From: a virus
DNA length: 64,000 bases
Strand: one strand, 5' to 3'
IMG/VR virus record: IMGVR_UViG_3300045974_000167
Coordinates: 19,560-83,559 of that record
Under the pieces are notes generated by a model. That model did not search any database. It had not been told where the DNA came from and worked only from the letters and a program-made list of their open reading frames with translations. Made by a program: the position numbers and the translations under genes. Below, piece after piece: positions 43,729 to 64,000 of this stretch. How positions within the stretch are numbered: the stretch's first letter is position 1; the number at the start of each line of letters is the position of its first letter.

Positions 43729-43734
43729 CCTTAA

Positions 43735-44094: not shown

Positions 44095-44098
44095 ATAC

Positions 44099-44317: not shown

Positions 44318-44336
44318 TACTTTTCATGGAGGAACG

Positions 44337-45087: not shown

Positions 45088-45129
45088 CGCAACTGATTGC
45101 AAACCATAGAAACATGCTGTATTGTCAAA

Positions 45130-45540
45130 TCATTGATTGACGGATTCGCCGCGAGAGCATTTCCGAATGCCTCGTTCGCGGGGCAGGGGCCGCTGACCCC
45201 CTGCCCATTATTTACGCTGGGTCATCCCCGAAGGGTGGCGAATGGGCCGGGATAAACCGGGGCGGTGTTAACACTTCCATTCCTCTGGTAAGGAGGAAAT
45301 GCCAACCGAATCAACGGCAGCGTAGCAATCTGGTATTCGGCGGGCGCAGCGAGCCCTTGTGCTCGTTTGCGGTCCTGCTAGGGGCGAGGTTAAGGGGGCT
45401 AGCACTCCTGTTGCCGACCTGCCGGATACCGTTATCTTGGGCACAACGCCCAAGGCGGCGTAGGGCTGTACGTATCCCTCCCCCGGGGCATCGGGCAAGA
45501 GGCATCCGGCATAGCCGTGAACGGCCCTACGCCGCCCATA
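45130..45540 (+). ncRNA. Unassigned highly structured non-coding RNA cluster with its own promoter
   Basis: Promoter TTGCAA-17-TATTGT (45097-45125) with no RBS after it; several long GC stems up to 16 bp. Confidence 0.6.
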
Positions 45541-45609
45541 GATTGAAACTGATTGCAACCCGCAGAACGATGCGGTAACGTCAAACTATCGACGGTCCAT
45601 GGAGGGATT

Positions 45610-46279
45610 GTGCTATCTGAATACGAAAAGCGGGATTACGTCAAGCTCAACGGAACCCGTTGTCCCTACTGCGGGGACGACGATGTTGGCACCTTCCCCC
45701 AGGAAGCGACAGAGGGTCCACGCAAACCTAGCGACCCCCTGGGGTATTGCGACCCGGACGGTTCGCTTAGAATCCTCGCCATGTGCGGCTGCGGCAAGAG
45801 GTGGTACGACGTTTATCGACTCCACACCCTAGAGGAGACATGATGCCCACAAAAATCATTGGGAAGGCGAAAGTCAGCGGCGGCGCAAAGGCGCTTGCTG
45901 TGGTCGAGTACATGATGGCATTGAACCGACTTACTCGTCTTGCTGACGAGATTGAGCGCGGGATGCACGGTTATCTGCCCGGAGGTGTCCTTGGGGATAT
46001 CGCCAAGGACATCCGCACAGTTCTCGAACATAAGGTGCCCTAATGACCAAGAAACCGGATCTCGTTGAGGTGTGTTCCCGGCTTGAGGGGGAGTTGAAGA
46101 CGGCTCAGATGCTCCACCACCAAGCGGTGTCCGCGCTTATGAAGGTTAGAAATGACCTGCGTAACGCCGAGGAGCGCGTGGAGTTGAAGGAATCCCGCAT
46201 CGTTTCACGAGATAACGAGATAGCCAGATTGCAGAAGGTCATCGTCAACATGGCAAAGACCATGTTCAAAGATGCGTAG
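45610..46279 (+). other. Three small hypothetical CDSs (45610-45843 Zn-ribbon, 45840-46043, 46043-46279 coiled coil)
   Basis: Promoter at 45553 plus RBS; coupled ORFs. Confidence 0.55.
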
Positions 46280-46281
46280 CT

Positions 46282-46536
46282 ATGGGTGAGTGCGTCGGAT
46301 GCGGCTTTTGCTGCAAGAAAGCCATGTGCTCGTTGGGCGTCCACTTGTACGGCATCCATAAAGTATGTCCATCTCTAGTGTTTGAAAACGGGGGGTACTG
46401 GTGTTTGACCGCGAGATCATCAAGCACATTCAGGAAGGAATTGTACGTGGGGGAGGGATGTTGTGCCGGTCTGAACACGGACAGGTTGATAATCATCAGA
46501 GCAAGGAATTCCTCACTCACTTCATCCGCGCTATGA
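46282..46536 (+). CDS. CxxCxxCC (YkgJ-like) Cys-cluster protein
   Basis: ECVGCGFCC...CPSL...YWC...GCC. Confidence 0.55.
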   Translation: MGECVGCGFCCKKAMCSLGVHLYGIHKVCPSLVFENGGYWCLTARSSSTFRKELYVGEGCCAGLNTDRLIIIRARNSSLTSSAL

Positions 46537-46758
46537 TGGGGATGGCATCAGGGGATGCTGTTGCTCTTGCCATCTATAGCGCCGCCGACCGGTGCGGAAT
46601 GACCAAGAATGAAGCGCATGATCTTGTTAACCACGTTCTACGTAGTCGTAGGTCTGAGTTTCCTCCGGGGTTTATGCCGTAGATGAAATCGGTTGCACTC
46701 TGTAGAAACATACCGTATTGTCAAATCATTGCGGCGGTAACAACCCATGGAGGGAACG

Positions 46759-46956
46759 ATGTCTAAAATCCGATGGACGGAAGAGATAAAGAAGTCGGTC
46801 AGGACTCGCATCAAGCGCGGAACTTCCCCCAAGGAACTGAAGCGGAGTTTCTCCGCGATGGTGGATTCCATGTCCTCGCCGGTTTCTGAGGTGGAGTCGC
46901 TCAGGGCGGAACTGCGGCGGCTGCGTGCCCAGCTAAAGTCCAATCCCCGGCCCTAG
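46759..46956 (+). CDS. Small hypothetical protein
   Basis: Promoter at 46693 and CCATGGAGGGA RBS. Confidence 0.55.
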   Translation: MSKIRWTEEIKKSVRTRIKRGTSPKELKRSFSAMVDSMSSPVSEVESLRAELRRLRAQLKSNPRP

Positions 46957-46959
46957 GGG

Positions 46960-47268
46960 TTGCTCATGCTCTCACTCAAAGAGGTGCATGAAGTCAACCT
47001 CGTAGTTCTCAACAACCACTTCGCCCCAGATTTATGTGAGTCGTTGTTCGGCCCGCTGGAATGGGACGAATCCATCATCATGCTGTCCCCGGAGGATAAG
47101 CGTGACGTACTTGACTTGCTTGTGGAGATGGGCGTTTTCCCTTCCAAGGGTCAGGCCCGAAAGAACTGGAAGGGATCGGTCACGATTCCTTCTGGCTTCA
47201 GCGATTTTGCGGGCATCGGGAAGATGAGGCGTAGGTTAACGATATGGAACCCAATGGAGGAAACATGA
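46960..47268 (+). CDS. S4-like (TyrRS C-terminal-like) RNA-binding domain protein
   Basis: VLDLLVEMGVFPSKGQARKN...IGK resembles the TyrRS C-terminal LLv.xGL..SkseARR motif. Confidence 0.55.
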   Translation: MLMLSLKEVHEVNLVVLNNHFAPDLCESLFGPLEWDESIIMLSPEDKRDVLDLLVEMGVFPSKGQARKNWKGSVTIPSGFSDFAGIGKMRRRLTIWNPMEET

Positions 47269-47474
47269 CGACTGTTGTGAAACCGGAGAAGAGGGCAAAG
47301 GTTCGGCTCGTCGGCGTTGATGGTAACGCCTTCATGCTTATCGGCGTCTGCCGTCAGGCTGGAAAGCGCGCCGGATACACCCCTGAGCAGATCACGGCAT
47401 TTCAGGAAGAGGCGATGTCTGGAGATTACGATCACGTTATCCAGACTTGCATGGATTGGTTCGAGGTTTCGTAA
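47265..47474 (+). CDS. Conserved small phage protein
   Basis: VRLVGVDGNAF...AMSGDYDH motif, frequent in phages and plasmids. Confidence 0.65.
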   Translation: MTTVVKPEKRAKVRLVGVDGNAFMLIGVCRQAGKRAGYTPEQITAFQEEAMSGDYDHVIQTCMDWFEVS

Positions 47475-47538
47475 AGCACGAGATCCTGGCGAGCTGGCAG
47501 GAGAGCCCTAGATAGCGTAGTAACTCGAAAGGAATAGT

Positions 47539-47961
47539 ATGCCCGCAGTAGCAAAGATTACTCATCAAGAAGTGCTCCTTGCCCTCAAGAATGTTGGGGC
47601 GTGTGAAGGTCTGCGTAACCAGTTCGTTCGCCGGGTTAAAACGATGGGATTTAAGCGGGCGTATGAATCCCTGATTAAGCGGGTAGGCGGGCGGTACGAG
47701 AAGTACATCAAGTTCGTTAACAGCCCCGACTTTTTCACCAAGCACATGAGCGAGTACACCACAATCGGTAAGCACCAATGGGCGCTGTATGACATCGCAA
47801 CAATCATCGCTAGGATCATTAATCAGGCGGGGATTAAGCGGCCAGATACTTACAACCCCGGCAACGTTAAGAGCATCCTAAAGCACTTCCCGCCCGCCAC
47901 CATGGAGAAGTTGCTGAAGAAGCTCGCTACCGACAAGAACTTGGTTAGGCGGTGGTGGTAG
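47539..47961 (+). CDS. Hypothetical basic protein
   Basis: AAGGA RBS; GACEGL motif. Confidence 0.6.
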   Translation: MPAVAKITHQEVLLALKNVGACEGLRNQFVRRVKTMGFKRAYESLIKRVGGRYEKYIKFVNSPDFFTKHMSEYTTIGKHQWALYDIATIIARIINQAGIKRPDTYNPGNVKSILKHFPPATMEKLLKKLATDKNLVRRWW

Positions 47962-48062
47962 CCTGCAATCGATTGCAAAGATGATTGTGCTTGTCAAACG
48001 TAGAATCATGTGCGACCATGCACCATCAACGACGCACCAACGGTCCATGGAGGGACTAACCG

Positions 48063-48518
48063 ATGGGCAAAGTCATCATCTTGCAGGGCGTTCCCGGCTC
48101 TGGGAAGTCCACCTACCAGCGCCAGTTCTACCCCGACGCGGAAGTGTTCTCCGCCGACCACTACTTCACGGCTGGGGGACAGTACGACTTCAACCCCAAG
48201 ATGCTGCCCCACGCTCACGGGATGTGCCTGCGCGGGTTCATCAACTGGTGCAAGTCGAACTCGATGTTGAGCAAGAACGTCGCCATCGTGGACAACACGA
48301 ACACCACGGTCACAGAGATCGCACCGTACATGGCGGTGGCGGCGGCGTACAACCACGATGCCGAGATATTCGCCATGATGGTTGCCCCCGAGATCGCCGC
48401 CAAGCGGAACATCCACGGTGTCTCGCAGGGCGCGGTCGAGGGCATGGCACAACGCATCGTCGCCTCACACAAGCAACTGCCCCCCTGGTGGAAGCTCACC
48501 GTCTTCACGGAGTCATAA
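48063..48518 (+). CDS. P-loop kinase (AAA_33 / polynucleotide kinase-like)
   Basis: GVPGSGKST, FSADHYF, AH..C, IVDNTNT, RNIHGV. Confidence 0.85.
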   Translation: MGKVIILQGVPGSGKSTYQRQFYPDAEVFSADHYFTAGGQYDFNPKMLPHAHGMCLRGFINWCKSNSMLSKNVAIVDNTNTTVTEIAPYMAVAAAYNHDAEIFAMMVAPEIAAKRNIHGVSQGAVEGMAQRIVASHKQLPPWWKLTVFTES

Positions 48519-48519
48519 C

Positions 48520-50435
48520 ATGGGACGCCACCGCAAACTGACGATGCGCGAACAGATCGAGGATCAGCGGCTCACCATCCACGATCTACAGGTCACCCGT
48601 GACCGGCTCTGGCACGCCATCCACGAGAACCTGAGTAACTACCCCAACAACGAGGGCTCGATTCGTTTGAGGGCGGTTATGAACGAGAATGCCTACTGTT
48701 CCTGCGGGCGCAGGGCTAGTTGCTGGGCGAACGGAACCGGACCCAAGATGTGTGAAACCTGTGCTTGTTCCTAGGGAGAACCATGGTTGCTACCTTTTCA
48801 GTCGAAGTCGAGTATGACCCCGCGCTTCTGAACATCCGCGAGGTGAAGGAAGTTCTCAACAAACTGATTGAGAATGCCACTCAGGACGGCGGCGACCTCA
48901 TGGATGGCATCGCCTCCATTAGTGGATTTACCCACGAAACCCCGAACAGGAAGGTCGGTGGTTAGGTGCCCTTTTACACCCTCAATATCGATGGAAAGAC
49001 CATCACCAGTTGGGAAACCCCCAAATACTCTTGTGGCGAGGTAAGTACAGAACCCAACCTCTGTCTAAGTTCTGGGTATATCTGCACCCGCAGGAAAGGT
49101 CACAGCGGTGATCATATCGCTCGCGGACCCAAGCGACAGCTAATTGAACGCTGGCCCCGACGCCCCATTTGAAACCATGTGCAATGCAGCATAACCTGCT
49201 ACATTTGCACCATGACGTTGCACCCACAACACGGAGGATTCACATGGAAACGAACGGACTTGGTGGACACGCTGCTGGACAGGAATACCACGCGCAGGAA
49301 CGCACGCTCCGCGTCTACTGGGACGATGATCGGCTGGACAAGATCACTCGCCTTCGCCTCCTGAGCGATCCCTGCTGTAGCTGGTGGGATGTCAAATACT
49401 GTCACGGCGTTCTCGCAGATGGTACGCTGGTGAATGTAACCCTTCCATTCTCACAGTTACGGAAGGGCGGCATCAACGCTCAGATCATCAAGTACGCCCG
49501 GGAGGACAAGGTGTTCGCCAAGGGCCTGGGTGTCTTCGACGCGATTTCCACTCTCTGCTAGAGGTTAGCCATGTTCAAGATTCTTGCTGCGGTGCTGGTT
49601 GCTTGTTCGTTGATCGGATGCGGCTCGGAAGTCGAGGAACCCGCCCCCCCTACTCCTGAGGTTGTAGTTGTCCGTGAGGTCTGCACAGTCTATCTCCTCC
49701 CTGACGGTGGCGTGGTTTGTAAGTGCGAACCCAAGCCCCTGGTGACTCCATGAAGGTAGAAATCTGCTGGACGGATTGGCGGGATGCCAACGAACCCTCG
49801 TATCTTGTGGAGTGCGAGGTGTCTCCGGGTGAACCTGCTTCTCGGGATTGCCCCGGGGCAGACCCCGAGGTCGAGATCCTAGCGGTGTGGGAGGATAGCC
49901 CTAGAAAGGTAGGGGAACCGCGAGTTAAGGTCTTCCGGAAGGACATCGAAGAGTACCTCGACGCCAACCCAGACGAGATTTACGACGACGCCGTGTGCGA
50001 AGCTGACGACAAAGACGCAGGACTGCGTTCTGCCGCTGACGACCTCAGAAGCGATGAGGCAAGGGGAAAGTAATGGCTCTGAAAATCAGCATCATGGAGG
50101 ATGAGGCGTTCCGCAAGGAATTGCAGAAGTTTTGCCAGGAACAGTTGCGGCCCATCGCCAGGGAGGAAATCGCCAAGATTCTCACTCCCGGCTATGCCAA
50201 GGAAGAACTGACGAAATACATCAAGGGCGAACTTACCAAGAAGGCTCTAGATGAACTTCGTTGGAACATCTACCACAACATCAAGAACACGGATGCGTTC
50301 CGAGAGGAGATGAAGAAACACATCACGGAATACATCAAGTACGAGCGTAGCGCCGCCGATATGACGCTGCAAGGCAAGCTCGATGAACGCATCAAGAATC
50401 TGATCCACATAACCCTGCGGGAGATGTTCAAGTGA
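48520..50435 (+). other. Run of small CDSs (48520-48774, 48783-48965, 48966-49172, 49244-49561, 49571-49753 lipoprotein, 49750-50073, 50073-50435)
   Basis: Coupled or RBS-preceded ORFs; 49571 has a signal peptide with an LIGC lipobox. Confidence 0.55.
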
Positions 50436-50867
50436 AGACCTACCAAGTGACCCTCGACATCAACACTAATGAAGTAGAGCCGCCGCAGAATTGGGATTGG
50501 GTAACCCTGCTCGATCTAGACGTAGCCAAGGGTGAGGGGGTAGACGTTGCAGATGTGCAACTGATTGCAGACGATAGTGACTGCCCAGGAGAAGGGACGA
50601 ACGAGTAACGACGCCCCAAATGTTCCGCACACGTTTGCAGGATGTTCTGACATCATGCATCAATGACGACGCGGAAACACCCCCTGGAGGCCAAAATGCC
50701 GGTGCCGACCGTTGAGGAAACGAAGTCTGGTACGAAGGTTGTTCCCTTCTTCTGCTGCCCCATGGTGACGCTCACGATGTTGAGCGGGCGACCCCTGGCG
50801 CACACGGATGCGTGCCCGAACAACCCCAAGAACAAGCGGTAACTCGCTGCACCCCATGGAGGGACAC

Positions 50868-52561
50868 ATGACGCTCGCAGAGAAAAAGGCGAAGATCCAG
50901 CACCTTCTCGCCACGAACAACACCGCAGTCGAGGTCGCTCTGACCCGGCTCCTTGCTCGTCAGACGAGTGATGAGCGGTACAGCCACACGACCGTCCACG
51001 CCAACAACCGTGGGTTCAGCGGGCGCGATGCCGAGTTCGGCACCTCTCTCGCGGAATGGATCAACAAGGGACACTCCCTTTCCTACCGCCAGATGATCTA
51101 CGGCCGCAAGATGGTGATGAAGTATTGGCGGCAACTGATCGAAGAGGCTGATGCCCGCACCCCCGGCTGGGCTGATCCCGTCGCCATGGACGACTTCGAC
51201 GGTGTGCAGGTCGAGCTTGACGCCGAGGCCGCGTTGGAGGCGCAGGCCGAACTCGCGTACATGAAGATGCACGGCAGCGACCCCTTCTAGGCTTTTGGGC
51301 GGCGTGCCCCTTGCCATCCCTGCGGGGTCTATGGCAAGGAGAAAGGAGGTGCGGTGAGTGTAGAACTACTGCTGCTAATAGTTCTAGCCATGACAATTGG
51401 ACGAGCCCTGAATTCAAAGCGGAAGTAACGACAACCCCTTTGATACATTCTCCGTTCAAGTCTGCTGTGCGATGATGCACCATCAACGACGTACCCACAC
51501 CCCATGGAGGGATTATGAGCAACCCCATCGAAGCGATCATCAACAAGATCCAAAGCGAAATCGAATACGCGAACGATGCAATCGATGAGGCAAGGCTCGA
51601 AGCACGGTTCGATCCCCTGATTCCCAAGGCGGAACGCGCCGACACCTGCAAGCGCGCCCGCATCGACGGCATCGAGGGAACGATCAAGCACTACGACCGG
51701 CTCAAGTCGATGAACCGGATGCGGCTGAATCAGGCAGCCAACCACTTCCTCAAGTCGGCCGGATTCAACTGGGACGCGACCGCCTCCAAGTCGCGGTCGT
51801 AACGCAAACGACCTGGGGTAAGTCGCTAAACTGCCCCTGCCTTTCCAACCCACACAGCGGAGGATTCACAATGACGATCACCATGAAGAACTGGCTCGTG
51901 ACGGCGCGTGATCTTGGCGAGGAGAATCCCTACCTCGCCCCGGAATGCCGCAAGTCGGCGGCGTGCCTGAGCGGGCAGATCACCCACCACCCGGAGTTGG
52001 TGATCACGAAGGACGAGAACCGAGTCACGACCTCCTCCATCGTCAATGTCGATGGACGCATCGTGACGACGTTCTCCGGGCGCAAGTACAAGCTGTACGG
52101 TCGTCCCGACCCCCGCTTCATGGAGTTCCTCGGCAGCAAGGAACTGCCCTATAACCCCCGCAACCCGCTGGCACCGCTGGTCGGTGCCGGTTTCATCGCC
52201 ATCGGAGGCTGACATGGGATTCACGACCATCGCAACGACCGCAGACGGTAGCCGCTACATCGTCAAGTACCACGACGGCGTTTCGTGTGTGGTGTGGGGC
52301 GAGATGTCCGGGTATCGCGGACTCAAGACCAAGCACCAGGGCACGATGTCCCTGCGTGTCGCAGATGTCACCCTCGCCACCATCGAGATGACGCCCATCA
52401 TCGTGGAGGAACTGCTCCAACAGTACCTCCGGTCGGAACAGAAGAAGGGCAAGTACATCGCGTGGCGTGGGCGTCGTTACTCCATCTATAACTCCGAAGC
52501 GGAGTTCCTGAAGTACATGGCGATGCGTGCTGCCACCCGCAACATCCAGGGTCGGTACTAG
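50868..52561 (+). other. Putative early genes (50868-51290, 51515-51802, 51871-52212, 52214-52561)
   Basis: GC3-rich ORFs, each with a strong RBS; promoters with -10 at 50651 and 51471. Confidence 0.6.
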
Positions 52562-52806
52562 TACGAGATTATGGGGAGCTGGCAGGAGAGAACTAGAAAG
52601 GCTAGTGCAACTGATTGCAGTGAGTAAGGGCGGCGGCAGTAAGGAAGGGTGAAAATGCAGCACAAACGACCCTTCTGATACGTTGTAACGCACAGAATGT
52701 TGTGCGACCATGCATCATCGGTTGACGCGGAAACTGCCGGGGGGTACGGATTGGCCGTAATCCAACGGTATTGACCGAGAGCTTGACCGACCAATGGAGT
52801 GACACA

Positions 52807-53406
52807 ATGACGACCGAGATCAAGAAGCCCCGCAAGTCGAAGAAGATCGCCGCCGAGAACGTCGCTGCCGCCGAGGTTGCCGCCCCGGTGGACGCTCTCA
52901 CCCCCGAGGTCACCACCGTCGAGGCAGTCGCCGCCGTCGAGGTCGCTCCCGCCGCAGAGCCGACCCCGATGCCCGACCCCTGGAAGCTGTTCGATGAGGT
53001 GCCGTACGGGGGCGCGGACAAGAAGATCCCGGTCCTGGCGACGGCGATCAACGACGAGAACCGCGAGTACGTGCTCCGCGAGCTGATGAACGCGGTCCTG
53101 GCCGTCACCGGCCCCCGCGACGGGATGTCCTCCTCGCTGGACCGCCGCGCCTTCCACGCCGGAGTGCGGACGTACATCCCCGAGGGGCACTACAAGCGGG
53201 CGCCCCTCCAGGCCGTGAAGCCGCTCGACGAGGAAATCTACGTCGCCCGCGTCGGCAGCCGCATCCTCGACACCATCAACGAGAAGAAGCTCCCGCTGTC
53301 CGGGGGCCTCAACTCCCACGAGAACGCGCAGGTCCGCATCGGCGCTCTCTACGAGGCGCTCGTTTCGGTCGCCGCGTCGAAGGGCCTGATCTTCGCCGCC
53401 CAGTAA
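52807..53406 (+). CDS. Putative early protein: basic N-terminus, Ala/Glu/Pro linker, globular C-domain
   Basis: Own promoter (TTGTAA-17-GACCAT, 52683) and terminator; very high GC3. Confidence 0.7.
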   Translation: MTTEIKKPRKSKKIAAENVAAAEVAAPVDALTPEVTTVEAVAAVEVAPAAEPTPMPDPWKLFDEVPYGGADKKIPVLATAINDENREYVLRELMNAVLAVTGPRDGMSSSLDRRAFHAGVRTYIPEGHYKRAPLQAVKPLDEEIYVARVGSRILDTINEKKLPLSGGLNSHENAQVRIGALYEALVSVAASKGLIFAAQ

Positions 53407-53428
53407 CACCTGAGTACGAGACTCCCGC

Positions 53429-53467
53429 GCTCCCGCACCCATACAACGGTGCGGGGGCGTTCTTTTT
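53429..53467 (+). terminator. Intrinsic terminator
   Basis: GCTCCCGCACC...GGTGCGGGGGC followed by GTTCTTTTT. Confidence 0.7.
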
Positions 53468-53803
53468 GGCTAGTTAGCAGGTGAGATAGACTAGAAATTC
53501 CCGGCCCGCGTCACCCCGTTAAGCTAGTAGACCATTATTGATACGAGGCTCGTACAAGCACGCAAAAACCCTACCCGCTACCCCCCCACCACCCCGACCC
53601 GCCAAAGGTCACCATGAGGCTCCTGCGCGTTCTAATAGGAATCCTAATTGCCCCCTCTGACCTCACTTCCGACCTAGAGCGTTTCTGCAATCGTGTGCAA
53701 AGTATAGGGGGCAGTACGCACGCCCCAAATGTTCCCACCCACCCCACAGAATGCCCTGCTACGGTTGACCATCAACGCCGTATTCAACCAATGGAGTGAC
53801 CCA

Positions 53804-55920
53804 ATGGCGAACAAGATGAATCACCGGCACGGCGGCGGCAGGCGGAACGAGGGAAAGTCGGAAGTCGATCTTCGCTTCCTCCTTCGTCCCGAGCCCCTGG
53901 CACTCGATCAGATCACCGAGGGTCTGGACGACGCCTTCATCGATTCCGAGATGTTCGACACCGGATGCTGCGCGGAGTGCGAGGACATGGCCCGCCGCTA
54001 CTCCACCGACAACAACGAGGGATGAAATGAACGAGCACGAGACTCCAGCACATGCACCACACACGGACGGACAGCTAGTGAGGTGCCCCAAGTGCAAGGG
54101 TCTGAGCACCGTGCAGGGTACGCACATCAGAACGTACTGCTGTTGCAGCAAGTCGCCGCCAGAGGGCAGTCTCATGGTACCCTACAACCGAACCCCCATC
54201 CGGAGGAAGTAAATGCACGGACGAGAGATGTGCGAACGCCACGAACCCGACATGAGGAAGTGTCGGTTCTGCACGGATTTCACCAAGGAACCGTGCTACA
54301 AGCCCAAGCTCATTGATCCTCCAAAGGACAAGACCAATGGACGACCCTAAGTACATCTACATCGACACCCATGAGGCAGGCCCAGACTTCTTCATCTTCC
54401 CTAACTGGTACGACCACAAGCGGGTGGCTGAGTTTGTGGGCGGGGAAGTGCTGAGTGCTGGATTCGTGTGTTTCAACGTGCCCAAGCCATTCTGTCATGG
54501 GAAGTCTACTTCTCTGAACGTCGGAGCTACCGAGTTCGCCACGAAATACTTGAGGAAGAGGTACGGGATCAACGAGGACTAACACCCCAAAATCCTGCAC
54601 ACGATTGCAGAACGGCGTGTTACCTTGACCATACGGCAATGACGCCGTGGGAAACGGAGAGACAATGGCACGGTACTTCATCGACCACAAGACGGGGCTG
54701 ATCACGGAGATCACCCTGGACGACATCGCCCCCGCCGGTCCCTGGCAACTCGCGGCCTGCGAAATGCGGGAAGTCCAGGCCCTCAGGAACGACGAGTTCT
54801 GCCTGACCGACCAGGGTGTGCTCCTCCGTGACGACGCGGGACAGATCATCGACGGGCTCCACATCGTCCTCAACCGCTACGGGGTTGGGACGACCTACGG
54901 ATACCCCGAAGAGAACCTCATCGAGTTCTTCAACTAGTACGAGATTCCAGCGCATTACGCGCATACGACCCACTAGCTAGGGAGGCAACAGTGCTGAGAA
55001 TCGACTTCGCAGAGCGTTGTGCATGGCGAGCCATGTACCTCTCGTACACCAAACACGACAAGTCCGGATACAAGTGGCAGCACCAGTTCTTCCACATCGG
55101 ATTCGACCCCAACCAGAATAGCGGGAGGCCGCAGATTTTCGGCGGCGCGTGGGGGCTGGCCTGGAGATTCAATATCCCCCACATCCGTTGGAACATGAAG
55201 ATGAACAGCATCACACGCTTCCTCTACCGCTGGCAAAGCAACATCCTGTTCCGCCTCGACGGACGCTTCAAGTGCTGGCCTGGGCAGACCCCCCGCCCCT
55301 AAATCCCGCAAACGATTGCAAGACGGTCTTAGACCGCCCTGTTACTGTGACTGTGCCGCAACCACGCGGCACCAACGGAGGCACAGACATGAGCAACTAC
55401 TGCGTCGAAACCTACCACGCCAGGCTGTCCGACTCGGTGATCACGGACATGGACGGAGACACGGCAGAGGAACTGAACGACGAAACGCTCGCCTACGCGA
55501 ACGAGCTGTTTGAGGCAGCCAAGGCGAACTGCCCGCCCGACGAATACTGCGAGGTTTGGGTTGCCCGCTTCCGGCCCAACCTGCCCGCCCAGCCTGTCTA
55601 CATCTTCACCTCCCTGGTGCATTAGACCGGGGATCGACGCCCCAAACGTCTGCACACGATTGCAGACCGCCGTGTTACGGTGACTCTGCCGCACTTGCGG
55701 CCACCAACGCTGGAGACACGCAATGGACACCATCACGCTGACCCGGCACGAAGCTGACCATGTGGTTGCGGCCCTCGCCACCCTGCACGCCATCTTGGGG
55801 AAGAACTACGAAACCGGCCACCCCAACGCCGAAGAGGACAGGAAGTGGGTGGCGGGCATCCTCCAGAACTTCAACGAGAAACTCGGAAACACCACCGTTT
55901 CCTGGCTGAACATCGAGTAA
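53804..55920 (+). other. Small putative early CDSs (53804-54025, 54027-54212, 54337-54582, 54666-54937, 54991-55302, 55389-55625, 55723-55920)
   Basis: Repeated promoter-RBS-ORF cassettes (-10 at 53760, 54621, 55343, 55676). Confidence 0.55.
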
Positions 55921-55963
55921 CAGACCGAACACCGAACGACGCGCCAACCAATGGAGTGACCCC

Positions 55964-56203
55964 ATGGCCTACGACGCCCAGAAAGATGTCCTCGTTCACG
56001 CCTTCCCCAAGTTCCAGACCGCCGACGGACACATCGAGATCGGAGTCTACAAGTACAACGGCGCGGCCCCCAAGATCAGGATGCACGCCGTCACGGTGTC
56101 CAAGTCCACGGGCAAAGAGTACAGGAACTCCATCGGCAACATGACCCGAGCCCAGTTCGAGTTGTTCGTCGGACTGTCCCCCGAGATCCTCAACAAGCTG
56201 TAG
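55964..56203 (+). CDS. PC4/YdbC-like ssDNA-binding protein
   Basis: IEIGVYKYNGAAPKIRM...G.MTRAQF pattern resembles the PC4/YdbC family. Confidence 0.5.
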   Translation: MAYDAQKDVLVHAFPKFQTADGHIEIGVYKYNGAAPKIRMHAVTVSKSTGKEYRNSIGNMTRAQFELFVGLSPEILNKL

Positions 56204-56249
56204 AAAAAGAACCCCAAATCGGCGGCGCGTCTGCTGCTGCGAGGTAGAC

Positions 56250-56510
56250 ATGAGATTCCATATCAATCCCTCCTACGCCCCAGGTCGTAGACTCTGGCTA
56301 GAGGTCACCCAAGACAGATTCTTCACCGAGGATGAGTACCGCCTCTTCTGGATGCTCAACAAACTGTCCATCTGGCACGGACAGGACAAGCACGGCGCGA
56401 ACTACAAATCGTGGGAATTTGCTCCAGATATGGAGCCTGCCGTGCGGCGCGTCCTCGAATACCTGAGATACGAGGAAGGAGACTTTGAACTGATCCCTCA
56501 GACCTACTAG
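56250..56510 (+). CDS. Hypothetical protein
   Basis: GAGGT RBS; followed by a terminator-like hairpin at 56532-56563. Confidence 0.55.
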   Translation: MRFHINPSYAPGRRLWLEVTQDRFFTEDEYRLFWMLNKLSIWHGQDKHGANYKSWEFAPDMEPAVRRVLEYLRYEEGDFELIPQTY

Positions 56511-57201
56511 ATCGAGATTCACACCCGCCCGCCCCCCTATGCTTGCACAGATAGGGGGCTTTTCACGTTAGTATCTAGCAAAAATCGGCGGCGGCGTCTG
56601 GTCCCCTTAGTATAGAAGATATAGAGGACAATAGGAGGGCTAATAGGGATACTAAAACTAGGGAAGCAATAGGTGGAATAGACCTGTAATCTCGATCACT
56701 TAGGTCTACCCTTTAGACAGTCCAGAATCTCCATAAATCCACCCAATCTAGCTAAAAAGCTGCCTCTTGCTCACTCAAAATCCTAAAAAGTCGAGACAAG
56801 ATTGGGTCGGGCACGAGACTATGGCGAGCTAGCGAGCACAGACAGAAAGATAGATCGAGACTCTAGCAAGCAGGCTGGAATAGATAGATAGACGAGCAAG
56901 TGGGAGGGCAGCAAGGCAAGAAAGGTAAGAAAGGCAAGACTGGGCTTGGCTCTCCCTCCCTATAGGAGATTGCGCTCTGAAAAGTTGAGAAAGTGTAGTT
57001 AGCGTTCAGACCCCTTGTTTTTAGTAGTGTAGAAAACACGATTTAGTAGCAAGACTGCTCCAACCATGCGCCGCCGATTCTCTACTCGTGCAGAAAGACG
57101 AGAGTGGTTGGAATGAACTACCCAAATGTTCTGCAATCAATTGCAGAACGCCCTGCTATGCTCCTTCCATGACGTACCACCCAAACGACGGAGACACTTC
57201 A

Positions 57202-57508
57202 ATGCGGACCTACTTCATGGTGTACGACGCAAGCGGCAACATGGTCATCGCCTGCTCCGACTGTGTGGAGCGGCACCTGCCGAGCGCGATGTGCGTCGAG
57301 ACACTGTTCACCCTGGACGACATCGACCACATCCACCAGACGAACCGCCCGATGTTCTCCAAGCCCGCCCGCCGCAGCGAGAGCAACTAACATGACCGGC
57401 ATGGACGACGCCATCTTCTTCTCCATCTGGTTCACAGCCGGAATCACGATGATGGGACTTATCTCCGGAGGATTCCGAGTCATCACCCGCCGCACCTTCT
57501 GGAGATGA
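57202..57508 (+). other. Two small CDSs (57202-57390; 57392-57508, single TM)
   Basis: Promoter (-10 TATGCT at 57157) and GGAG RBS; hairpin plus T-run at 57547-57566. Confidence 0.5.
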
Positions 57509-57579
57509 CATGATCCACAAGTACGGCTGTTAAGCAAAATGCCCTCGCCCACCGTGGCGGGCTTTTCTGCAACTGATTG

Positions 57580-57851
57580 CAGACAGCACGAGACTCTAGG
57601 TGGCTGGGAGGAAAGAAAGATAGGAAGGCTGGTACCCAGTACGAGACTATGGCTAGCTGGGTAGGAGTAGCAAGAAAGATAGAAGGAGCAGCAAAGCAAG
57701 ACAAGAAAGGAAAGCAAGAAAGAAGTAGAAAGACTGGAAAGACGAGAAAGAAAGACAGCAGGAGAAAGACGAGAGTGAGATCGAGACTATGGCTGGGTAG
57801 GTAGGTGAGCATAGCGAGGTAAGGCAGGCTGGGCGAGCGAGGCTGGACAAG
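57580..57851 (+). repeat. AG-saturated purine tract with CGAGACT(A/C)T repeats
   Basis: For example AGAAGTAGAAAGACTGGAAAGACGAGAAAGAAAGACAGCAGGAGAAAGACGAGAGTGAGA; ends abruptly at 57851. Confidence 0.8.
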
Positions 57852-58343
57852 ACCGTTTTTTCAAAATCGACCGACCTGCTCTGTCTACTTTGCGTCGGCA
57901 CGCCTTTTTCCCGTGCCAAAACGAACGCCCCTTTCCGTGTCGTGTGCGTTCGGTACGTGTCCCGTGTCTTTTGCCCCACCCAACATGACCCATCTGTTTT
58001 CATGCACTTACCTCGTTTCTTGCGTGTACCATGCGTCTTTTGCCCCAACCATGCCCCACCCCCCCGCGCCCCTTGACGTTCCAACATGTTGAAATCACTG
58101 CAAACGATTGCGCCCGTGTTTCGGCACGGTCGCTGCAATGACTCCGGAATGTCGTTGTTGAATCTTCGGTCCCGCCGCTGAAAATCGGACCTGCGAACGA
58201 CCGACCCGGCCCCCGGCAATCGACCCGAAACCCGAAAAAACGTTCTCGGAACGTGCCTTTGCGGTGTTTCGGCATACCCCAACGGATCGACCGTTGAACC
58301 TTGAACGGCGACCGAAACCCGTTGTATCCATACGGAAAATCAA

Positions 58344-59150
58344 ATGAAAATCTCGAAATCGGAACGTCGCGCCCGCCTCGTTGCCTCGAACGCCGCTCTG
58401 CATGCTGCGGCGGTCGCTGCGGTCGTTGCGGACCCCGAATCTCCCGAAACCGAATCCATCCTCATGATGAACGCCGGCGCCGATGTTCCGCCGGTCACGC
58501 CTGCGGATGTCGCTGCGGCGTCCGCTGATGCCCCGCCATGCGACGCACCGGTCGCGGTCGATGCTCCGGCCCCGGACGCCCCTGCGGACGCCCCTGCGGT
58601 ACCGGTGCGCTCCGACGTTCGATACTCCGCGCCTCGACTGTCGATGCCGGTCGGAACCCTGATTCCGGTCGGTGCGAATCACACCGGTACCCGCGGCATC
58701 TCCCGGCGGTACCTGTACGCGATTCCCGGCGGTGACTTCCTCGCGACCGGTGATTCCCGCCTCCCCTCGTCCCTCGAATCCATCGACCTTGCCCTGTCGA
58801 TGATCGACGACGCTGCGACGCTGATCGAACGCACCGATTCGACCACGTTCGCACCGACGGTCGATGCCTGCGGCTTGCGGTACGGTGCGTCACCGCGCCA
58901 TGCAACGACACACGCCGCGATGCGACTTGATGCGCATGACTTCGCGGTCTCGTTCACGGCCCGCGTGATCGATTCGGTCCCGCCCGGACTGCGGCCCGCC
59001 TCGTGCCATTCGGTCCTGTCGCGCCTCCCCGGCGCACGGTCGAACCACGCCGATGCGTCGGCCCGCCTCTCCTTCGTTCGTACCATCGCGGTGAACGTTC
59101 GGACGCTTCTCGCTGCTGACGCTGCGGCCGTGACCGCTCCGACGGTCTAA
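58344..59150 (+). CDS. Hypothetical protein encoded entirely without AG; candidate first-expressed factor
   Basis: 268 aa with no Trp or Gln and only two Lys (AAA); basic N-terminus, Ala/Pro/Asp linker, globular C-domain; strong terminator directly after the stop. Confidence 0.72.
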   Translation: MKISKSERRARLVASNAALHAAAVAAVVADPESPETESILMMNAGADVPPVTPADVAAASADAPPCDAPVAVDAPAPDAPADAPAVPVRSDVRYSAPRLSMPVGTLIPVGANHTGTRGISRRYLYAIPGGDFLATGDSRLPSSLESIDLALSMIDDAATLIERTDSTTFAPTVDACGLRYGASPRHATTHAAMRLDAHDFAVSFTARVIDSVPPGLRPASCHSVLSRLPGARSNHADASARLSFVRTIAVNVRTLLAADAAAVTAPTV

Positions 59151-59158
59151 CGTGACTT

Positions 59159-59214
59159 GACCGACGGTTGTGCATGCCTTCCATGACATGCGCAACCGTC
59201 GGTCTTATTTTTTT
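59159..59214 (+). terminator. Strong intrinsic terminator
   Basis: GACCGACGGTTGTGCATG / CATGCGCAACCGTCGGTC 18-bp stem followed by TTATTTTTTT. Confidence 0.85.
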
Positions 59215-59398
59215 CGCCCGTTGGGATGTGCTCACATGAGGGGGGATATTTTGGTGTGATTTGACAAACGGGAATCTGACTTCCCACGCAAGCGGTTGCG
59301 GGAGGGGAAATGTTTAGGGTGAGGGGAACAGGGTGGGGGGTCGTTGGGGGACAGGAGGAAAAATTTTAGGGGCTCCTTTTCGACTTAGATGAAATGAA

Positions 59399-59427
59399 TT
59401 GACAAATGTAGGGTGCTTCGGTAATGT
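59399..59427 (+). promoter_or_regulatory. sigma70-type promoter (fixed-AG spacer class)
   Basis: TTGACA-aatgtAGggtgcttcgg-TAATGT. Confidence 0.75.
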
Positions 59428-59472
59428 TGTTTCCTGATTTCGGCGGTGCAATCCCAATCATGGAGGCTCCTA

Positions 59473-60080
59473 ATGTCTGACCCTGTTGACAGGATGTGCG
59501 AGTGTGGGCACCTTGAATCCCGGCATGGCTACACCTCGTCTGGGCAGTTTACTTGTAACGACCCCCTGTGTATGTGCAGGGTGAACTTCAAGCCTGTAGA
59601 GGTTGCTCACGTTGCTCTATCCGGCTCGATTGTGGGCAAGGGTTCGATGAAGTAATCCTGTTGTAAGAAGCCTCAATGGAGTGAGGATGGACCGTTCGGC
59701 TATCAATGGGGAATTCGCTCGACATAGAGTCGTGGCGGGTTCCCCTTTTACTACTGACTTCGCGTTGGAAGAAATCTACAGGGCGTGGGTGGAGCTTTCT
59801 AAACCTACTGACTGTTGGATTGGGTATGACCTAGACAACGAACACAAACGGATAATCTCCGTTGTGAGGAAAGAGGCTGAGGATGAAGGAGAAGGAGTCG
59901 GCCTACGAAGCGTTGATGGTGGCGAAGCATTATGTGGGTAAGGGGTGCGGGGATAACTCTTGCCTACTCGTTAGACCTACTGGAATGGCTACGAATGGCG
60001 GGTGCCGGTGTGCGAACCGGCCTGCGGTGTTCTCCGCGCTGTGCAGGCTATTCCGCGCAAGCATGGAGGAGAATTCGTGA
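59473..60080 (+). other. Three small CDSs (59473-59655, 59681-59941, 59883-60080)
   Basis: RBS-preceded ORFs; Cys motifs (CECGH; GMATNGGCRC). Confidence 0.5.
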
Positions 60081-60700
60081 AAGTCGTCGTCGGGGTTCCT
60101 GCGGGGGATAGAGTCCACACAGAGTTTGTGGTGTGCCTGGGGGATATGCTGCTCTATACGGCTAAGGCATTACCTGACCTGGAATTAGAGCTTCGGATGC
60201 AGATGAGTTCGCTCGTCGCGTTTAATCGTAATGAGCTTGCGAAATATGCTCTAGAGCAGAAGGCCGACTACCTCCTGTTTATTGATTCGGATATGGAGTT
60301 TCCTCCGTATGCGCTGAATCGGATTTTGGATGAAGCCTTAGGCGGGGAGTATGAAATCCTTGGGTACAACTACACGCAGCGGGGGCCACCGTTCCAGGGA
60401 TTAGCTCTTGATCTTGCTGGAAAGCAGGTGGAACACGGCAAGTGGGTGATTGAAGTTTCTAGGTTGCCTACCGGATTTATGTTGATTAATCTGGGTGTTT
60501 TTGCCAAATTGAAATCACCGTATTTCCACCATCCGATTGAGGACGGACATATCGTTTCAGAGGATTATGCGTTCTGCGACGATGCACGAAAGGCTGGAAT
60601 CAGACTTTGGATGGACGCGGATATGTCTAGGGAGATTAGGCATATCGGAACTGCATATACACGGTGGGTTTCGGGGTTAGGGTGCCAGAATGAGTTTTGA
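60077..60700 (+). CDS. GT-A fold (GT2-like) glycosyltransferase 1
   Basis: RNELA..AL...ADYLLFIDSDM.FP, PTGFMLI..VF, SEDYAFC..AR..G..LW.D...HIG. Confidence 0.82.
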   Translation: MKVVVGVPAGDRVHTEFVVCLGDMLLYTAKALPDLELELRMQMSSLVAFNRNELAKYALEQKADYLLFIDSDMEFPPYALNRILDEALGGEYEILGYNYTQRGPPFQGLALDLAGKQVEHGKWVIEVSRLPTGFMLINLGVFAKLKSPYFHHPIEDGHIVSEDYAFCDDARKAGIRLWMDADMSREIRHIGTAYTRWVSGLGCQNEF

Positions 60701-61313
60701 TATTGTTCAGGTGGTTGTGCCTACGCGGGGGAATCCACGAGCTGAAGTAGTTTCCTCTATTGAGAGGGTTTGTCGGCGTAGCCTTGCTCCCAAATACTTG
60801 ATTGGGAATGCGGGTGCAGCGGAAACGAAGGCCCGTGCGGTTAAGTGGTTCATGGAGGAATGCGTTGCGGATAGATTAATCATCGTGGACGACGACATTA
60901 TCGTGCCGCCCAATTTCTTGGATTTAGCGTGCAGGGATGCCGATATAGTCGCAGCGATTTGTCCGGTATGGGTGGTGGGGACTAAGCAGGTGCCGTTCTA
61001 CAATGCCTACCGTGCGGTGCAGGGTGGATACGCGCACGCGGAGATTAATCTAAAGGGAATGCAGGAGGTAGATGCTGTTGGAGGAGGCGCTCTTTGTCTG
61101 ACTCGGAAAGTCCTTGCCGACCTAAAGCCTGTGTTCACGGATAAGTACGACGAGTGGGGAGTGCTTGCTCTGGGGGAAGATTTCCACTTTTGCCAAAGGG
61201 CTAAGGCTAAGGGCTATAAGGTGTGGGCGGATTTCAGTATCCGATGCGAACACATCAAGACCGTACTTCTAGAGGACTACGCCATCCGCGTGATTAAGGG
61301 GTTGCAGCCATGA
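60690..61313 (+). CDS. GT-A fold glycosyltransferase 2
   Basis: IIVDDDI, EVDAVGGGALC, GEDFHFCQRAKAKGYKVWADFSIRCEH. Confidence 0.8.
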   Translation: MSFDIVQVVVPTRGNPRAEVVSSIERVCRRSLAPKYLIGNAGAAETKARAVKWFMEECVADRLIIVDDDIIVPPNFLDLACRDADIVAAICPVWVVGTKQVPFYNAYRAVQGGYAHAEINLKGMQEVDAVGGGALCLTRKVLADLKPVFTDKYDEWGVLALGEDFHFCQRAKAKGYKVWADFSIRCEHIKTVLLEDYAIRVIKGLQP

Positions 61314-61921
61314 CGGTACAAGTAGTCATTCCTACGAGGGGAAATCCCCGCGTAGAGACTGTTGCCTCTATTGAAAATATTTGCAGGGGCAAGACCCCCC
61401 CGCACTACGTAGGGGGCTCGATGGGTGCAGCAGAGACAAAGAGTCGGATTGTTCAATGGTTTCTGCTAAAGACGAATGCCTCGCACTTAATCATCTTAGA
61501 TGATGACGTTATTCCTCCAACGAATTTCTTGAGTCTCGCAGAACGGGGAGTTGAGATAGTAGCAGGAGCAGTACCACTATTCGGTGCTCACTCCGCAAGG
61601 GTTCCGTTCGATGCTGTTTATAGGAGAAATGCCGCTGGAACCTATATTCCCGTAGAAGCCGGATTAACTGGAATGCATGAAGTAGACGCAGTAGGAGGAG
61701 CTTCTATCTGTATTGCTCGCCACGTTCTGGTAGATGTGCGGCCCGCCTTTACCGATGTGTACGACGAAGACGGAAGGGCGGTTATCAGTGAGGACTTCCA
61801 TTTCTGTCAGCTAGCCAAGGCGAAGGGATATAAAATCTGGGCCGACTTCGATGTCCGGTGTGAACACGTTAAGCAAATGCCGTTGTCGGACATGGCGATG
61901 CGCGTGCGAGCGAACCCGTGA
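61310..61921 (+). CDS. GT-A fold glycosyltransferase 3 (paralogue of 60690)
   Basis: VVIPTRGNPR.E, ILDDDV, EVDAVGGA, SEDFHFCQLAKAKGYKIWADFDVRCEH. Confidence 0.8.
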   Translation: MTVQVVIPTRGNPRVETVASIENICRGKTPPHYVGGSMGAAETKSRIVQWFLLKTNASHLIILDDDVIPPTNFLSLAERGVEIVAGAVPLFGAHSARVPFDAVYRRNAAGTYIPVEAGLTGMHEVDAVGGASICIARHVLVDVRPAFTDVYDEDGRAVISEDFHFCQLAKAKGYKIWADFDVRCEHVKQMPLSDMAMRVRANP

Positions 61922-62259
61922 GTGATTGCTCTATTCCTTGTACCGGTCGATGTTGTGAGATGTTGGCACTACCGTTTCTCATGGAGGAATACAAACAATC
62001 TTATGAGAACTGGCTGGCGGGTCGGCCCCACCTAAAAGATATCTGGATTATCTACCCGATGCTGAAACCGCCACCAGAGAAACTCTATAAAGAACTTCTC
62101 GATACAGTCGGAGGCGATCCATATAAGCTTGTCTCCTTCCACTACGGATGCAAGCACTTAACAGAGGATAAGAAGTGTAGCATCTACGATGCTAGACCTC
62201 AGATGTGCAGGACGTTCCCAGATGATCATCCTTGCCAGTTTTGCGGAGTAACAGCATGA
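61918..62259 (+). CDS. YkgJ-family Fe-S/Zn Cys-cluster protein
   Basis: CTGRCC...CKHL....CSIYDARPQMCRTFP. Confidence 0.8.
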   Translation: MSDCSIPCTGRCCEMLALPFLMEEYKQSYENWLAGRPHLKDIWIIYPMLKPPPEKLYKELLDTVGGDPYKLVSFHYGCKHLTEDKKCSIYDARPQMCRTFPDDHPCQFCGVTA

Positions 62260-62353
62260 AGAAGGCTCTGATTTACGCGGCGTGGTTTCTGGCGGGATTC
62301 TTCATCGGGCCTATCCTTGCCTATTTCGGAATTATGAGTCTCTGGAGGCCGTA

Positions 62354-63084
62354 ATGACATTAGGAAAAAATCTTGGAACGGTCGGCGGGCACAACTGGTA
62401 CCGTCTACCGTCCAAGTTCGTAGAACGGTTGTGGTGTACCCGCTGCGGGTGTCTTGCCGAGGGCGACTTGCTCTGGGCAATGAATCTGAAGTTAACCCGC
62501 TGGGATTGGCAGTTCACACTACCCGGGAATCCTGTAAAGGTGATTAAGAGTTCCGAGGATGTTCCTAAATGCCCCAACGGTGTTGGGTACAACCAGACCA
62601 CGCTCATGCGGGAGCAGGGACTACAGAAACTAGAGCGTCAGGCCAAGGGAGAAATCGAATGATTGAAAAGAACACCATCAATTTCTGCGGAAGGCCCTTG
62701 CTCGATTGGGAACCCGGCGACGAACAGTTCAAGAAGATTTTGAAGATTACGTATGATAAGGGCTGCGAACATTACATCGCCAAGCCCAGCGATACTATTA
62801 TCTTCCTAATGCGGAAGGTGAAGGAACTTGGCAATCAATTGCACGACGTAGAGGCTACCCCTATGTCGGAGTGGGCGGCTACTCTCGCGGCTGCGAAGGA
62901 GAACGTGGAGGGAACGGCGGCTTTGTTACATGAGGCCGAGAAGCGTATTGCGAAACTGGAGGCGATGATTCCGCAGTATGCACCGGAACCTCCAACGCAT
63001 TGCCATTGTCCCCGTAGCGTTCCTCTAACGCAAGATCAGAAACGATGCTCTTGGTGTTGGTTACCTCGTAAGGAAAAGACCTAA
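62354..63084 (+). other. Two hypothetical CDSs (~62354-62662, 62659-63084)
   Basis: GGAGG RBS and ATGA coupling. Confidence 0.5.
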
Positions 63085-64000
63085 TGCGCGAGTGTGTGGA
63101 GTGTGGGCATATTACGTGTTCTCACCTAGCTGAGTTTGAACAGCTACAGGCCAATGCGTTAGAGGGCCTGCGTGATCGCGTTAAGCAGGCAGAGCAGGAT
63201 GCGCGTGCGGCGGGGTATAGGGCGCATGATTTCCCTGCCGTGGCTGCGGAACGTGACGTTCTCCGCGCCCGCGTGGCTGAGGTCGAGCGGGACTTGGCAA
63301 GCGAAGTGCGGCAGCACGGGGAAACGGCTGCGAGCTATTTCGATGCCCGCGCCGAGTCCGAGAGGCTGCGGGCGGCGCTGCGGGCGGTCCTCGACACGCA
63401 CGATGCCTGGGACGCCGCCGAGGTTGAGAGGTTCTCGCAGGAGAGCCTGTCGCGCCGGATGGTCCGGTGCGAAGCGTTCTACGGGGCGAAGAAGGAGGCC
63501 CGCGCCGCGCTGGCCGAGGCCGAGGCGGGGAGGCTGCGGGCGCAGGTCGATTCCTGGGAAGCTGGCTGGCACAAGAAGCACGGGGAGGTCGTTCGGTTGA
63601 CGGAGGTGCTGCGGGACGTTTTCGACTCCGGCTACATCCCGCACGACTACGCAACCTGTGACGAGAACAGGTCCGTCAACGCGGATCGAGCGTGCCTCGC
63701 GTGCAGGACCCGCGCCGCCCTCGCCGCCGATCCGGTAGCGGAGGGCGGGGACGCGCCGTGGAGGTGCCCCATCTGCGAGAACGGCACGCTAATTGCGCCG
63801 TGGAACTGCGTGTGCAACGGGATTGCCCCCACCGCTCCGGTGCCAAGCGCCCCTGACCCCGAGGACGTTCCTGTCACTCGCCCCTGGAAGGATGCCAGCC
63901 CAGACTTCCAGTCAGGTTATCGGGCCGGGTGGGCTGACCGGGAGGCGGACATCTTGTGCGGCATCGACAGGGTAGCGCCCCCGGTGCCGAGCGGGCCGCG
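63084..64000 (+). CDS. Hypothetical coiled-coil/Cys-rich protein, 3'-truncated by the window edge (absent from the ORF track)
   Basis: TAATG coupling; frame MRECVECGH...VAAERDVLRARVAEVER... appears open to the end; GC rises markedly after ~63200. Confidence 0.6.
   Translation, partial: MRECVECGHITCSHLAEFEQLQANALEGLRDRVKQAEQDARAAGYRAHDFPAVAAERDVLRARVAEVERDLASEVRQHGETAASYFDARAESERLRAALRAVLDTHDAWDAAEVERFSQESLSRRMVRCEAFYGAKKEARAALAEAEAGRLRAQVDSWEAGWHKKHGEVVRLTEVLRDVFDSGYIPHDYATCDENRSVNADRACLACRTRAALAADPVAEGGDAPWRCPICENGTLIAPWNCVCNGIAPTAPVPSAPDPEDVPVTRPWKDASPDFQSGYRAGWADREADILCGIDRVAPPVPSGP

Follow-up and report, generated by a model that had tools for sequence, protein, structure and literature searches.

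What does the abrupt change in base composition at positions 57851/57852 of the viral contig IMGVR_UViG_3300045974_000167 represent, where a purine-saturated tract gives way to a pyrimidine-rich stretch whose + strand is devoid of the dinucleotide AG? We analyzed this IMG/VR contig (83,559 bp, linear, ~87% complete, from a pond metagenome); positions given below are those of the window, the stretch of 64,000 nucleotides (nt) that makes up its last 64 kb. A first-pass annotation had pointed out a sharp strand-polarity switch and offered a genome terminus, an injection start, or a boundary of modified DNA as explanations. We found that the switch is genuine, and we tentatively read it, with a little less than even confidence, as a seam where an array of purine-rich repeats abuts a mobile cassette that has been purged of AG and thereby carries immunity at the RNA level, rather than as a genome end or an origin.

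The composition switch and the AG-free unit

We scanned the whole contig for purine content in 150-bp windows. Values of at least 70% were reached only at 56775-56953 (maximum, 0.73), here called tract A, and at 57564-57878 (maximum, 0.82), here called tract B, and values of at most 33% only at 57870-58109. The largest purine step of the contig, computed from 200 bp on each side, lies at 57855 (0.46, versus a genome standard deviation of 0.053), and it is there that the purine and pyrimidine extremes of the contig meet, which bears out the proposed switch. The last AG before the junction occupies 57850-57851 and precedes a T6 run at 57856-57861. AG density peaks genome-wide at 57580-57851, with 53 AG in 272 bp (mean, 16.6; standard deviation, 5.1), and the second-ranking window, at 56788, falls in tract A and contains 42 AG. 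Both 56600-56950 and 57580-57851 had been described as noncoding and AG saturated. The second of these is the densest of the contig, and the first is just 62% purine overall, its density being concentrated in the core at 56775-56953.

On the other side of the junction, the + strand lacks AG from 57852 to 59238, in agreement with the pyrimidine-rich, AG-free stretch noted earlier. The flanking AGs are 1,389 bp apart, while the runner-up in the contig measures 149 bp and 57 AG would be expected from composition. GGG density is highest in the contig at 59242-59441 (20 per 200 bp, versus a mean of 4.3) and CCC density at 58042-58241. The C/G ratio reaches the contig maximum at 57974-58073 (46 C, 13 G), flanked by two minima located in tract B and in the G-rich spacer beyond the island, and two of the six G-quadruplex motifs of the contig flank open reading frame (ORF) P0001, the gene of the island, on opposite strands. 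The idea that the island is bracketed thus proved correct and far above chance, with the AG-densest DNA to its left and the GGG-densest to its right, and the presence of a predicted terminator on either side is consistent with an insulated unit.

The sense strand of the cassette contains 0 AG, 0 TGG, and 0 GGG. These words return past the terminator, TGG and GGG first at 59222 and AG first at 59239, which is 7-10 nt after the U-run. The other strand was not purged, as the + strand of the island retains 77 CT. Mononucleotide shuffles of the leader yielded 20.9 AG on average and never fewer than 7, versus 0 observed; back-translations of P0001 with the codon usage of the two other 68%-GC genes of the phage averaged 25.6 AG over 5,000 trials, the lowest count being 12, again versus 0 observed. 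Since those two genes have normal AG contents (61-67 AG per kb) and no back-translation fell below 12, high GC content does not explain the purge. The trinucleotide GGA occurs at the expected frequency in the island (14 versus 15) and always follows a C; therefore, the target is not the Shine-Dalgarno or CsrA core as such. We accordingly rejected CsrA or Shine-Dalgarno avoidance, given that the restriction falls on the 5' neighbor alone. The avoided feature is a purine, or TG or GG, preceding G.

Cassette layout and the family-wide footprint

The AG-free unit begins on the + strand with a C-rich leader of 492 nt (57852-58343), which contains the two direct-repeat pairs listed in the first-pass annotation (57966/58035 and 58116/58264), a degenerate copy, near 58098, of a 14-bp palindrome that recurs genome-wide (hereafter, the lattice palindrome), and a G-quadruplex motif on the - strand (58043-58072). 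Two weak candidate promoters were found in the leader, one composed of TTGAAC at 58301, an 18-nt spacer, and TATCCA at 58325 (58301-58330) and the other at 58039-58099; the score of each falls slightly short of the 99.9th percentile of the phage-promoter matrix. A consensus promoter scan returned nothing in the leader and no promoter next to 57852, and the predicted structure of the leader RNA is unremarkable (z score, -0.9). The leader is followed by P0001 (58344-59150, + strand), an orphan ORF of 268 amino acids (aa) without AG, TGG, or GGG, which shows a coding-type position bias and has a GC content of 68%, versus 51-52% for the gene of the large terminase subunit (TerL) and a glycosyltransferase gene and ~52-54% for the phage. 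P0001 matched no Pfam or PHROG family and no known fold; neither the Atlas nor Foldseek nor an AlphaFold model (predicted local distance difference test score, 62.5) yielded a usable lead to its function. A strong intrinsic terminator is predicted at 59159-59215 (+ strand), where 18-nt arms of 94% complementarity are accompanied by a T-run. Beyond it, a spacer at 59239-59372 (+ strand), previously described as packed with GGG, AGG, and TGG, is indeed rich in G-runs, overlaps the GGG maximum of the contig, and contains a G-quadruplex motif at 59317-59340; a sigma-70-like promoter of the next genes follows at 59399-59427.

We then looked for relatives of P0001. The family has four other members (P0002, P0003, P0004, and P0007), which originate from ENA, JGI, and Logan data and lie on contigs of just 985-1867 bp; identity is 56% for P0003 and 39% for P0004. 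No further relatives of P0001 or P0004 were recovered by tblastn or pattern scan among phages, plasmids, IMG/VR, JGI metagenome contigs, and GTDB genomes. The purge imposes a recognizable footprint on a protein: K, E, and Q are restricted to their A-ending codons, and the one codon of M terminates in TG; a codon that starts with G is therefore barred after any of these residues. In P0001, P0002, P0003, and P0004, a K, E, Q, or M residue is never found before a residue with a G-starting codon, and Trp is absent. Shuffled proteins reached this footprint in 9/20,000 (P0001), 31/20,000 (P0002), 1/20,000 (P0003), and 21/20,000 (P0004) trials, and the same footprint was read by eye in P0007. Because it is present in every member, the purge appears to be a selected trait of the gene family and not of this locus, as judged from residue order in the homologues.

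The purge is one-stranded, affects the noncoding leader and the coding sequence alike regardless of frame, ends within ~10 nt of the U-run of the terminator, being relaxed 7-10 nt after it, and is mirrored in the homologues. For these reasons, a constraint on RNA is the simplest explanation, and we infer that the purge is a selected property of the cassette transcript or, less likely, of the sense DNA strand.

As a whole, the right side of the junction looks like a self-contained, moron-like cassette that moves horizontally. Phage morons are autonomous genes with their own promoter and terminator and a foreign base composition, inserted between phage genes. The cassette resembles them in being a single gene with a strong terminator of its own, in its GC content (68%, against ~52-54%), and in its location in a zone of accessory genes beside glycosyltransferase paralogues. 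It differs from them in the AG purge, in having just a weak candidate promoter, and in a product without a known family; we know of no moron purged of a dinucleotide on one strand. A further likeness comes from another sample, in which an identical unit exceeds the phage in depth: a second pond study yielded a 936-bp contig identical to 58282-59217 at a depth of 7.6, where identical phage pieces have depths of 2-3. Both pond runs were seen as Logan contigs, for which depth is one figure per contig. The depth excess is consistent with the cassette residing in other genomes as well.

The purine-rich repeats and the surrounding genes

Tracts A and B lie 0.8 kb apart, with A upstream, and are homologous (56813-56942 versus 57641-57777, 66% identity over 137 nt, E value of 1e-9). 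They share a repeat whose core reads CGAGACT[AC]T[AG]G and is followed by GCTGG and AAGA-type runs. Among the six exact cores that we found, five belong to the tracts, two in A (56814 and 56856) and three in B (57589, 57642, and 57782), and no shuffle matched the observed count. Tract B (57564-57878, + strand) follows an intrinsic terminator (57544-57567), opens with a copy of the lattice palindrome (57565-57583), and contains GGCTGG five times within 240 bp. A Chi-like role of GGCTGG, including one as an exonuclease shield, was rejected, as such words are neither overrepresented nor skewed genome-wide. The claim that the tracts are noncoding holds for tract A, which has no + strand frame of at least 40 codons; tract B is crossed by a Lys/Arg-rich frame of 75 codons, which is probably spurious because its homologue has no such frame.

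Copies of the repeat also occur away from the junction. The sixth exact core, at 42404, belongs to an exact 14-nt copy at 42401-42414 (+ strand), in the 3' part of an ORF and ~100 nt before a tRNA cluster, and a degenerate purine-rich copy lies at 52554-52600, or 52562-52600 if delimited more narrowly (+ strand). This copy directly follows a stop codon, and downstream of it come a lattice palindrome, a promoter, and a 68%-GC gene. That gene (52771-53406) is a second orphan with the same high GC content, and its surroundings are laid out like those of the cassette (repeat copy, palindrome, promoter) without the purge, its AG density being normal. A scan of IMG/VR with the repeat core returned 56 single matches, approximately the chance level, none of them within a purine tract, and no relative carrying the repeat. 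We read the tracts as a purine-rich intergenic repeat that is specific to this phage and clustered here. The array, placed just behind an intrinsic terminator, may act as intergenic punctuation. Such an arrangement recalls repetitive extragenic palindromic (REP)-like and mosaic-phage module-boundary repeats: as in those families, copies of a short conserved core are found at the ends of genes and between them, and here they form arrays. It differs from them in that the repeat is purine rich and nonpalindromic, has no predicted RNA structure (z, -0.1), and has no relatives in IMG/VR.

Other roles for the tracts were considered. An H-DNA or triplex-forming polypurine tract was rejected, given that no homopurine mirror repeat in the tracts is both long and uninterrupted; their homopurine runs reach at most 15 nt, and longer ones exist elsewhere in the contig. 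Compared with shuffles, folding was ordinary in the zone of tract A (z, -0.2) and in tract B (z, -0.09), with no sign of a structured noncoding RNA. A CsrB/RsmZ-like sponge RNA was likewise rejected, with no Rfam match at E values up to 1 and the folding of tract B equal to that of shuffles.

The zone to the left of the junction is sparsely coding. Behind an ORF at 56250-56510, a hairpin with a short T-run that resembles a terminator was recognized by eye at 56524-56562 (+ strand) and was absent from the list of the consensus scan. The following zone (56563-57128) contains tract A and short ATAG-type repeats and has no + strand ORF of at least 40 aa; ATAG occurs 14 times at 56563-57860, versus 2.2 expected. 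The two tracts are separated by a small predicted transcription unit (57129-57567, + strand) that comprises a 20-bp palindrome over a phage-type promoter, ORFs at 57169-57390 and 57392-57508, neither of which gave a family match, and the intrinsic terminator that precedes tract B. Near-perfect palindromes of 19-20 bp, of the TTCTGCAAT..ATTGCAGAA type, bracket the two-ORF unit (57129-57148 and 57565-57583), and the first of them overlaps its promoter. ORF 57169-57390 and ORF 54647-54937, both without family matches, have a 21-nt stretch in common (57308-57328 and 54711-54731; 20/21 identical), and their products are probably paralogous small proteins.

Every gene of the contig is encoded on the + strand. 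Tail genes come first. Next are the replication module (9-25 kb), a region with glycosyltransferase, ParB, and terminase genes (26-38 kb), and an extended series of small promoter-led genes (38-57.5 kb). The contig then passes through the junction zone, which is the largest gene-poor, noncoding zone of the phage, and closes with three paralogous glycosyltransferase genes and a gene of high GC content, in which it breaks off. TerL is ~52% identical to the TerL proteins of Stenotrophomonas phages DLP5 and DLP3, Rhodobacter phage RcZahn, and Vibrio SIO-2-like siphoviruses. We found no close relatives of the region in the phage collection and none of the phage in IMG/VR by a TerL search, and distant glycosyltransferase loci and DLP5 contain no comparable island or tract. 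Neither RNA families nor tRNAs were detected at 56000-60000.

A promoter type recurs about every 1 kb at 39000-57200; its elements are a CGCCCCAAATG-like box upstream, a spacer containing TTGCAGAAC, which is half of the lattice palindrome, and an extended -10 element of the form TGn-TAYNNT or GAYNNT. The direct repeats of the island leader, GTCTTTTGCCCCA, look like the upstream box of this promoter. A search for PF00940 (single-subunit RNA polymerase, a possible reader of the T7-promoter-like core) gave no match in the contig, with a control that matched nowhere either and 13% of the genome missing. The tRNA cluster at 42518-42848 consists of four genes (Leu-TAG, Leu-TAA, Lys-TTT, and Val-TAC), with a perfect lattice palindrome next to it at 42851. 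Downstream of the cassette, three tandem paralogous glycosyltransferase-like genes (60002-61921; phrog_1574 / phrog_12406) start after 0.8 kb and are followed by a gene for a CxxCxxCC zinc/iron-chelating domain protein (61918-62259). The contig end (63076-64000) falls inside a 68%-GC gene (63084-63998). There, the summed contig depth is 51.6, versus 18.1, and both pond runs show numerous loose ends that diverge at 63485-63531; the assembly probably broke at this point owing to a shared or variable segment.

Weighing the nature of the junction

An end of the packaged genome was one of the explanations put forward at the outset. If 57851 were a physical end, a pac site, or a terminal-repeat boundary, the cassette would be injected first and both 3'-ending strands would be purine or G rich. 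Indeed, the strand that runs 5' to 3' toward the junction is purine rich on both sides, the site lies within the largest noncoding zone, and the GGCTGG cluster adjoins it. We nevertheless regard an end at this site as very improbable. Two assemblers read across the junction without differences; no word of at least 15 nt is common to the junction site and the rest of the contig except lattice palindromes and a promoter-like stretch; ~24 kb separate the site from the terminase genes (TerL at 33951-35792); and the GGCTGG words lack the genome-wide enrichment or skew of Chi-like sites. In addition, the relative RcZahn, with ~52% TerL identity, is reported to have a circularly permuted genome and headful packaging (PMC8601537). 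Sharp composition switches in phage contigs are thus not to be annotated as termini without read-end evidence. Nor do the assemblies favor an artifact. The composition change is abrupt and the GC content of the island is unlike that of the phage, as would be seen in an assembly chimera or a sequencing artifact at 57851, but an independent k-mer assembly of the source run gave one Logan contig of 19,560 bp that spans 50000-63376, junction included, without differences, the second study has the island letter for letter, and homologous proteins occur in ENA, JGI, and Logan data. As far as the assemblies show, a chimera is excluded, and we give this explanation the least credence of all. Hardly more credible is a replication origin or priming zone, in which each AG of the + strand would be a CT(N) start for primase on the - template, saturated in the tracts and absent from the island. 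Known DnaG start trinucleotides resemble CTN, CCA, and CCC, which are the - strand equivalents of the forbidden words NAG, TGG, and GGG, and the phage encodes its own DnaG-like primase and DnaB-like helicase. However, 1.4 kb without priming sites has no obvious benefit, and a gene family that enters other contexts would not take a lack of priming sites along. A probable lambda-type origin lies instead at ~11.5 kb (11490-11707): three 24-nt iterons, two of them with GGTTACCGGTAACC, are spaced 23-25 bp apart at 11490-11561 inside an O-like initiator gene (11144-12154) and are followed by the most AT-rich 150-bp window of the contig (32.7% GC at 11558). The lowest GC content of the junction zone, at 56607, ranks fourth (150-bp windows) or fifth (300-bp windows) in the contig, and no iterons accompany it.

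Two further explanations were considered. In a DNA-level reading that goes back to the first-pass annotation, AG would be the target of the DNA modification of the phage, with the tracts as hypermodified shields or roadblocks and the sense strand of the island exempt for early reading. The AG-dense flanks of the AG-free unit are in line with this proposal, the phage has several glycosyltransferases, and, by analogy, DNA modification is likely in this phage group because the DNA of DLP3 resisted all 15 restriction enzymes tried (PMC7326821). We consider the proposal distinctly unlikely all the same: the purge is one-stranded and the duplex keeps 77 AG on the other strand, so it is not exempt; EcoRI and several other enzymes blocked in DLP3 have neither AG nor CT in their sites, which argues that the modification is not AG specific; and the other genes of the phage, including the neighboring promoter-led units, are normal in AG density. 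Alternatively, the switch could be unrelated to the purge and serve transcriptional insulation only, in which case purine-rich or G-quadruplex-prone spacers and a C-rich, G-poor leader acting as a Rho-loading site would isolate the units. All purine- or G-rich tracts sit behind a terminator or a stop codon and ahead of a promoter, the C/G ratio of the leader is the highest of the contig and those of tract B and the G-rich spacer are the lowest, and the leader RNA lacks special structure. This explanation leaves unaccounted for the total lack of AG over 1,389 bp and the fact that the two AG-densest windows adjoin the sole AG-free run, and we judge insulation alone to be unlikely. Rho-type insulation and purine-rich or G-quadruplex spacers after terminators are compatible, as additions, with a seam next to an RNA-immune cassette.

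We therefore return to the seam, which we propose as the explanation of the junction. The purge would make the cassette immune to a factor whose targets for cutting or binding are single-stranded purine-G steps, such that the cassette RNA would survive or escape regulation, whereas ordinary RNAs, with ~60 AG per kb, would not. The AG-dense and GGG-dense flanks may be the parts that are removed or occupied by the factor. A more elaborate version, in which flanks and purged unit form one device and a phage or host factor destroys or sequesters ordinary RNA and trims read-through to the purged core, seems to us possible and rather doubtful; it would make the mobile cassette a naturally occurring "single-protein production" module.

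The proposal has precedents in RNA biology. mRNAs lacking ACA are translated in MazF-expressing cells (PMC5408214), and a MazF homologue cuts at the two-base step U|G N (PMC13107127). As in ACA-less transcripts, a short word is missing here from an entire transcription unit, on the sense strand alone, and synonymous choice and residue order maintain coding. Unlike them, the present case is natural and not engineered, concerns the words AG, TGG, and GGG, has no known cognate nuclease, and possesses word-enriched flanks for which there is no counterpart. The RegB endoribonuclease of phage T4 cuts GGAG in early mRNAs, and a phage RNase aimed at such purine-rich, Shine-Dalgarno-like words would spare AG-free RNA. 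The purge is, however, far broader than GGAG, and GGA remains at its expected frequency; no RegB-like gene turned up, although no search was aimed at one. Phage genomes are also known to avoid restriction sites and other motifs and to carry strand-biased sites, e.g., T7 with respect to type III enzymes. The strong, selected absence of a short word is common to both situations, but the avoidance described here is local (one 1.39-kb unit) and not genome-wide, concerns a dinucleotide, and is limited to one strand. Guanine ADP-ribosylation by DarT1 was rejected as a reader of AG, since its paper gives no consensus motif.

Several observations weigh against an RNA-immune cassette. The transcript ends are predictions, and the purge begins ~190-450 bp upstream of the sole candidate promoters, both of them weak; as it starts before them, selection on the RNA would require that transcription reads through from upstream or that a longer RNA is processed. 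The contig yielded no candidate nuclease or RNA-binding protein, in an RNase scan that covered the neighboring ORFs and a few of the large ones, and no fold could be recognized in the cassette protein. The repeat array has no relatives in the IMG/VR core scan, in the distant loci, or in DLP5. Finally, the AG content of the homologues is deduced from protein order and not from DNA, and the contig breaks in the second sample can stem from low depth instead of different flanks.

If the purge confers immunity on the RNA, the purged cassette and its AG-saturated neighbors would constitute ready resistant and hypersensitive substrates for finding the activity proposed here. Were strand-specific DNA chemistry the cause, the same pair of sequences would double as internal positive and negative controls when a new modification is mapped. 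If the purge does reflect immunity at the RNA level, it would imply that an undescribed nuclease or RNA-binding activity with dinucleotide-scale specificity operates in phage-infected cells, and that mobile genes have a simple way to outlast it.

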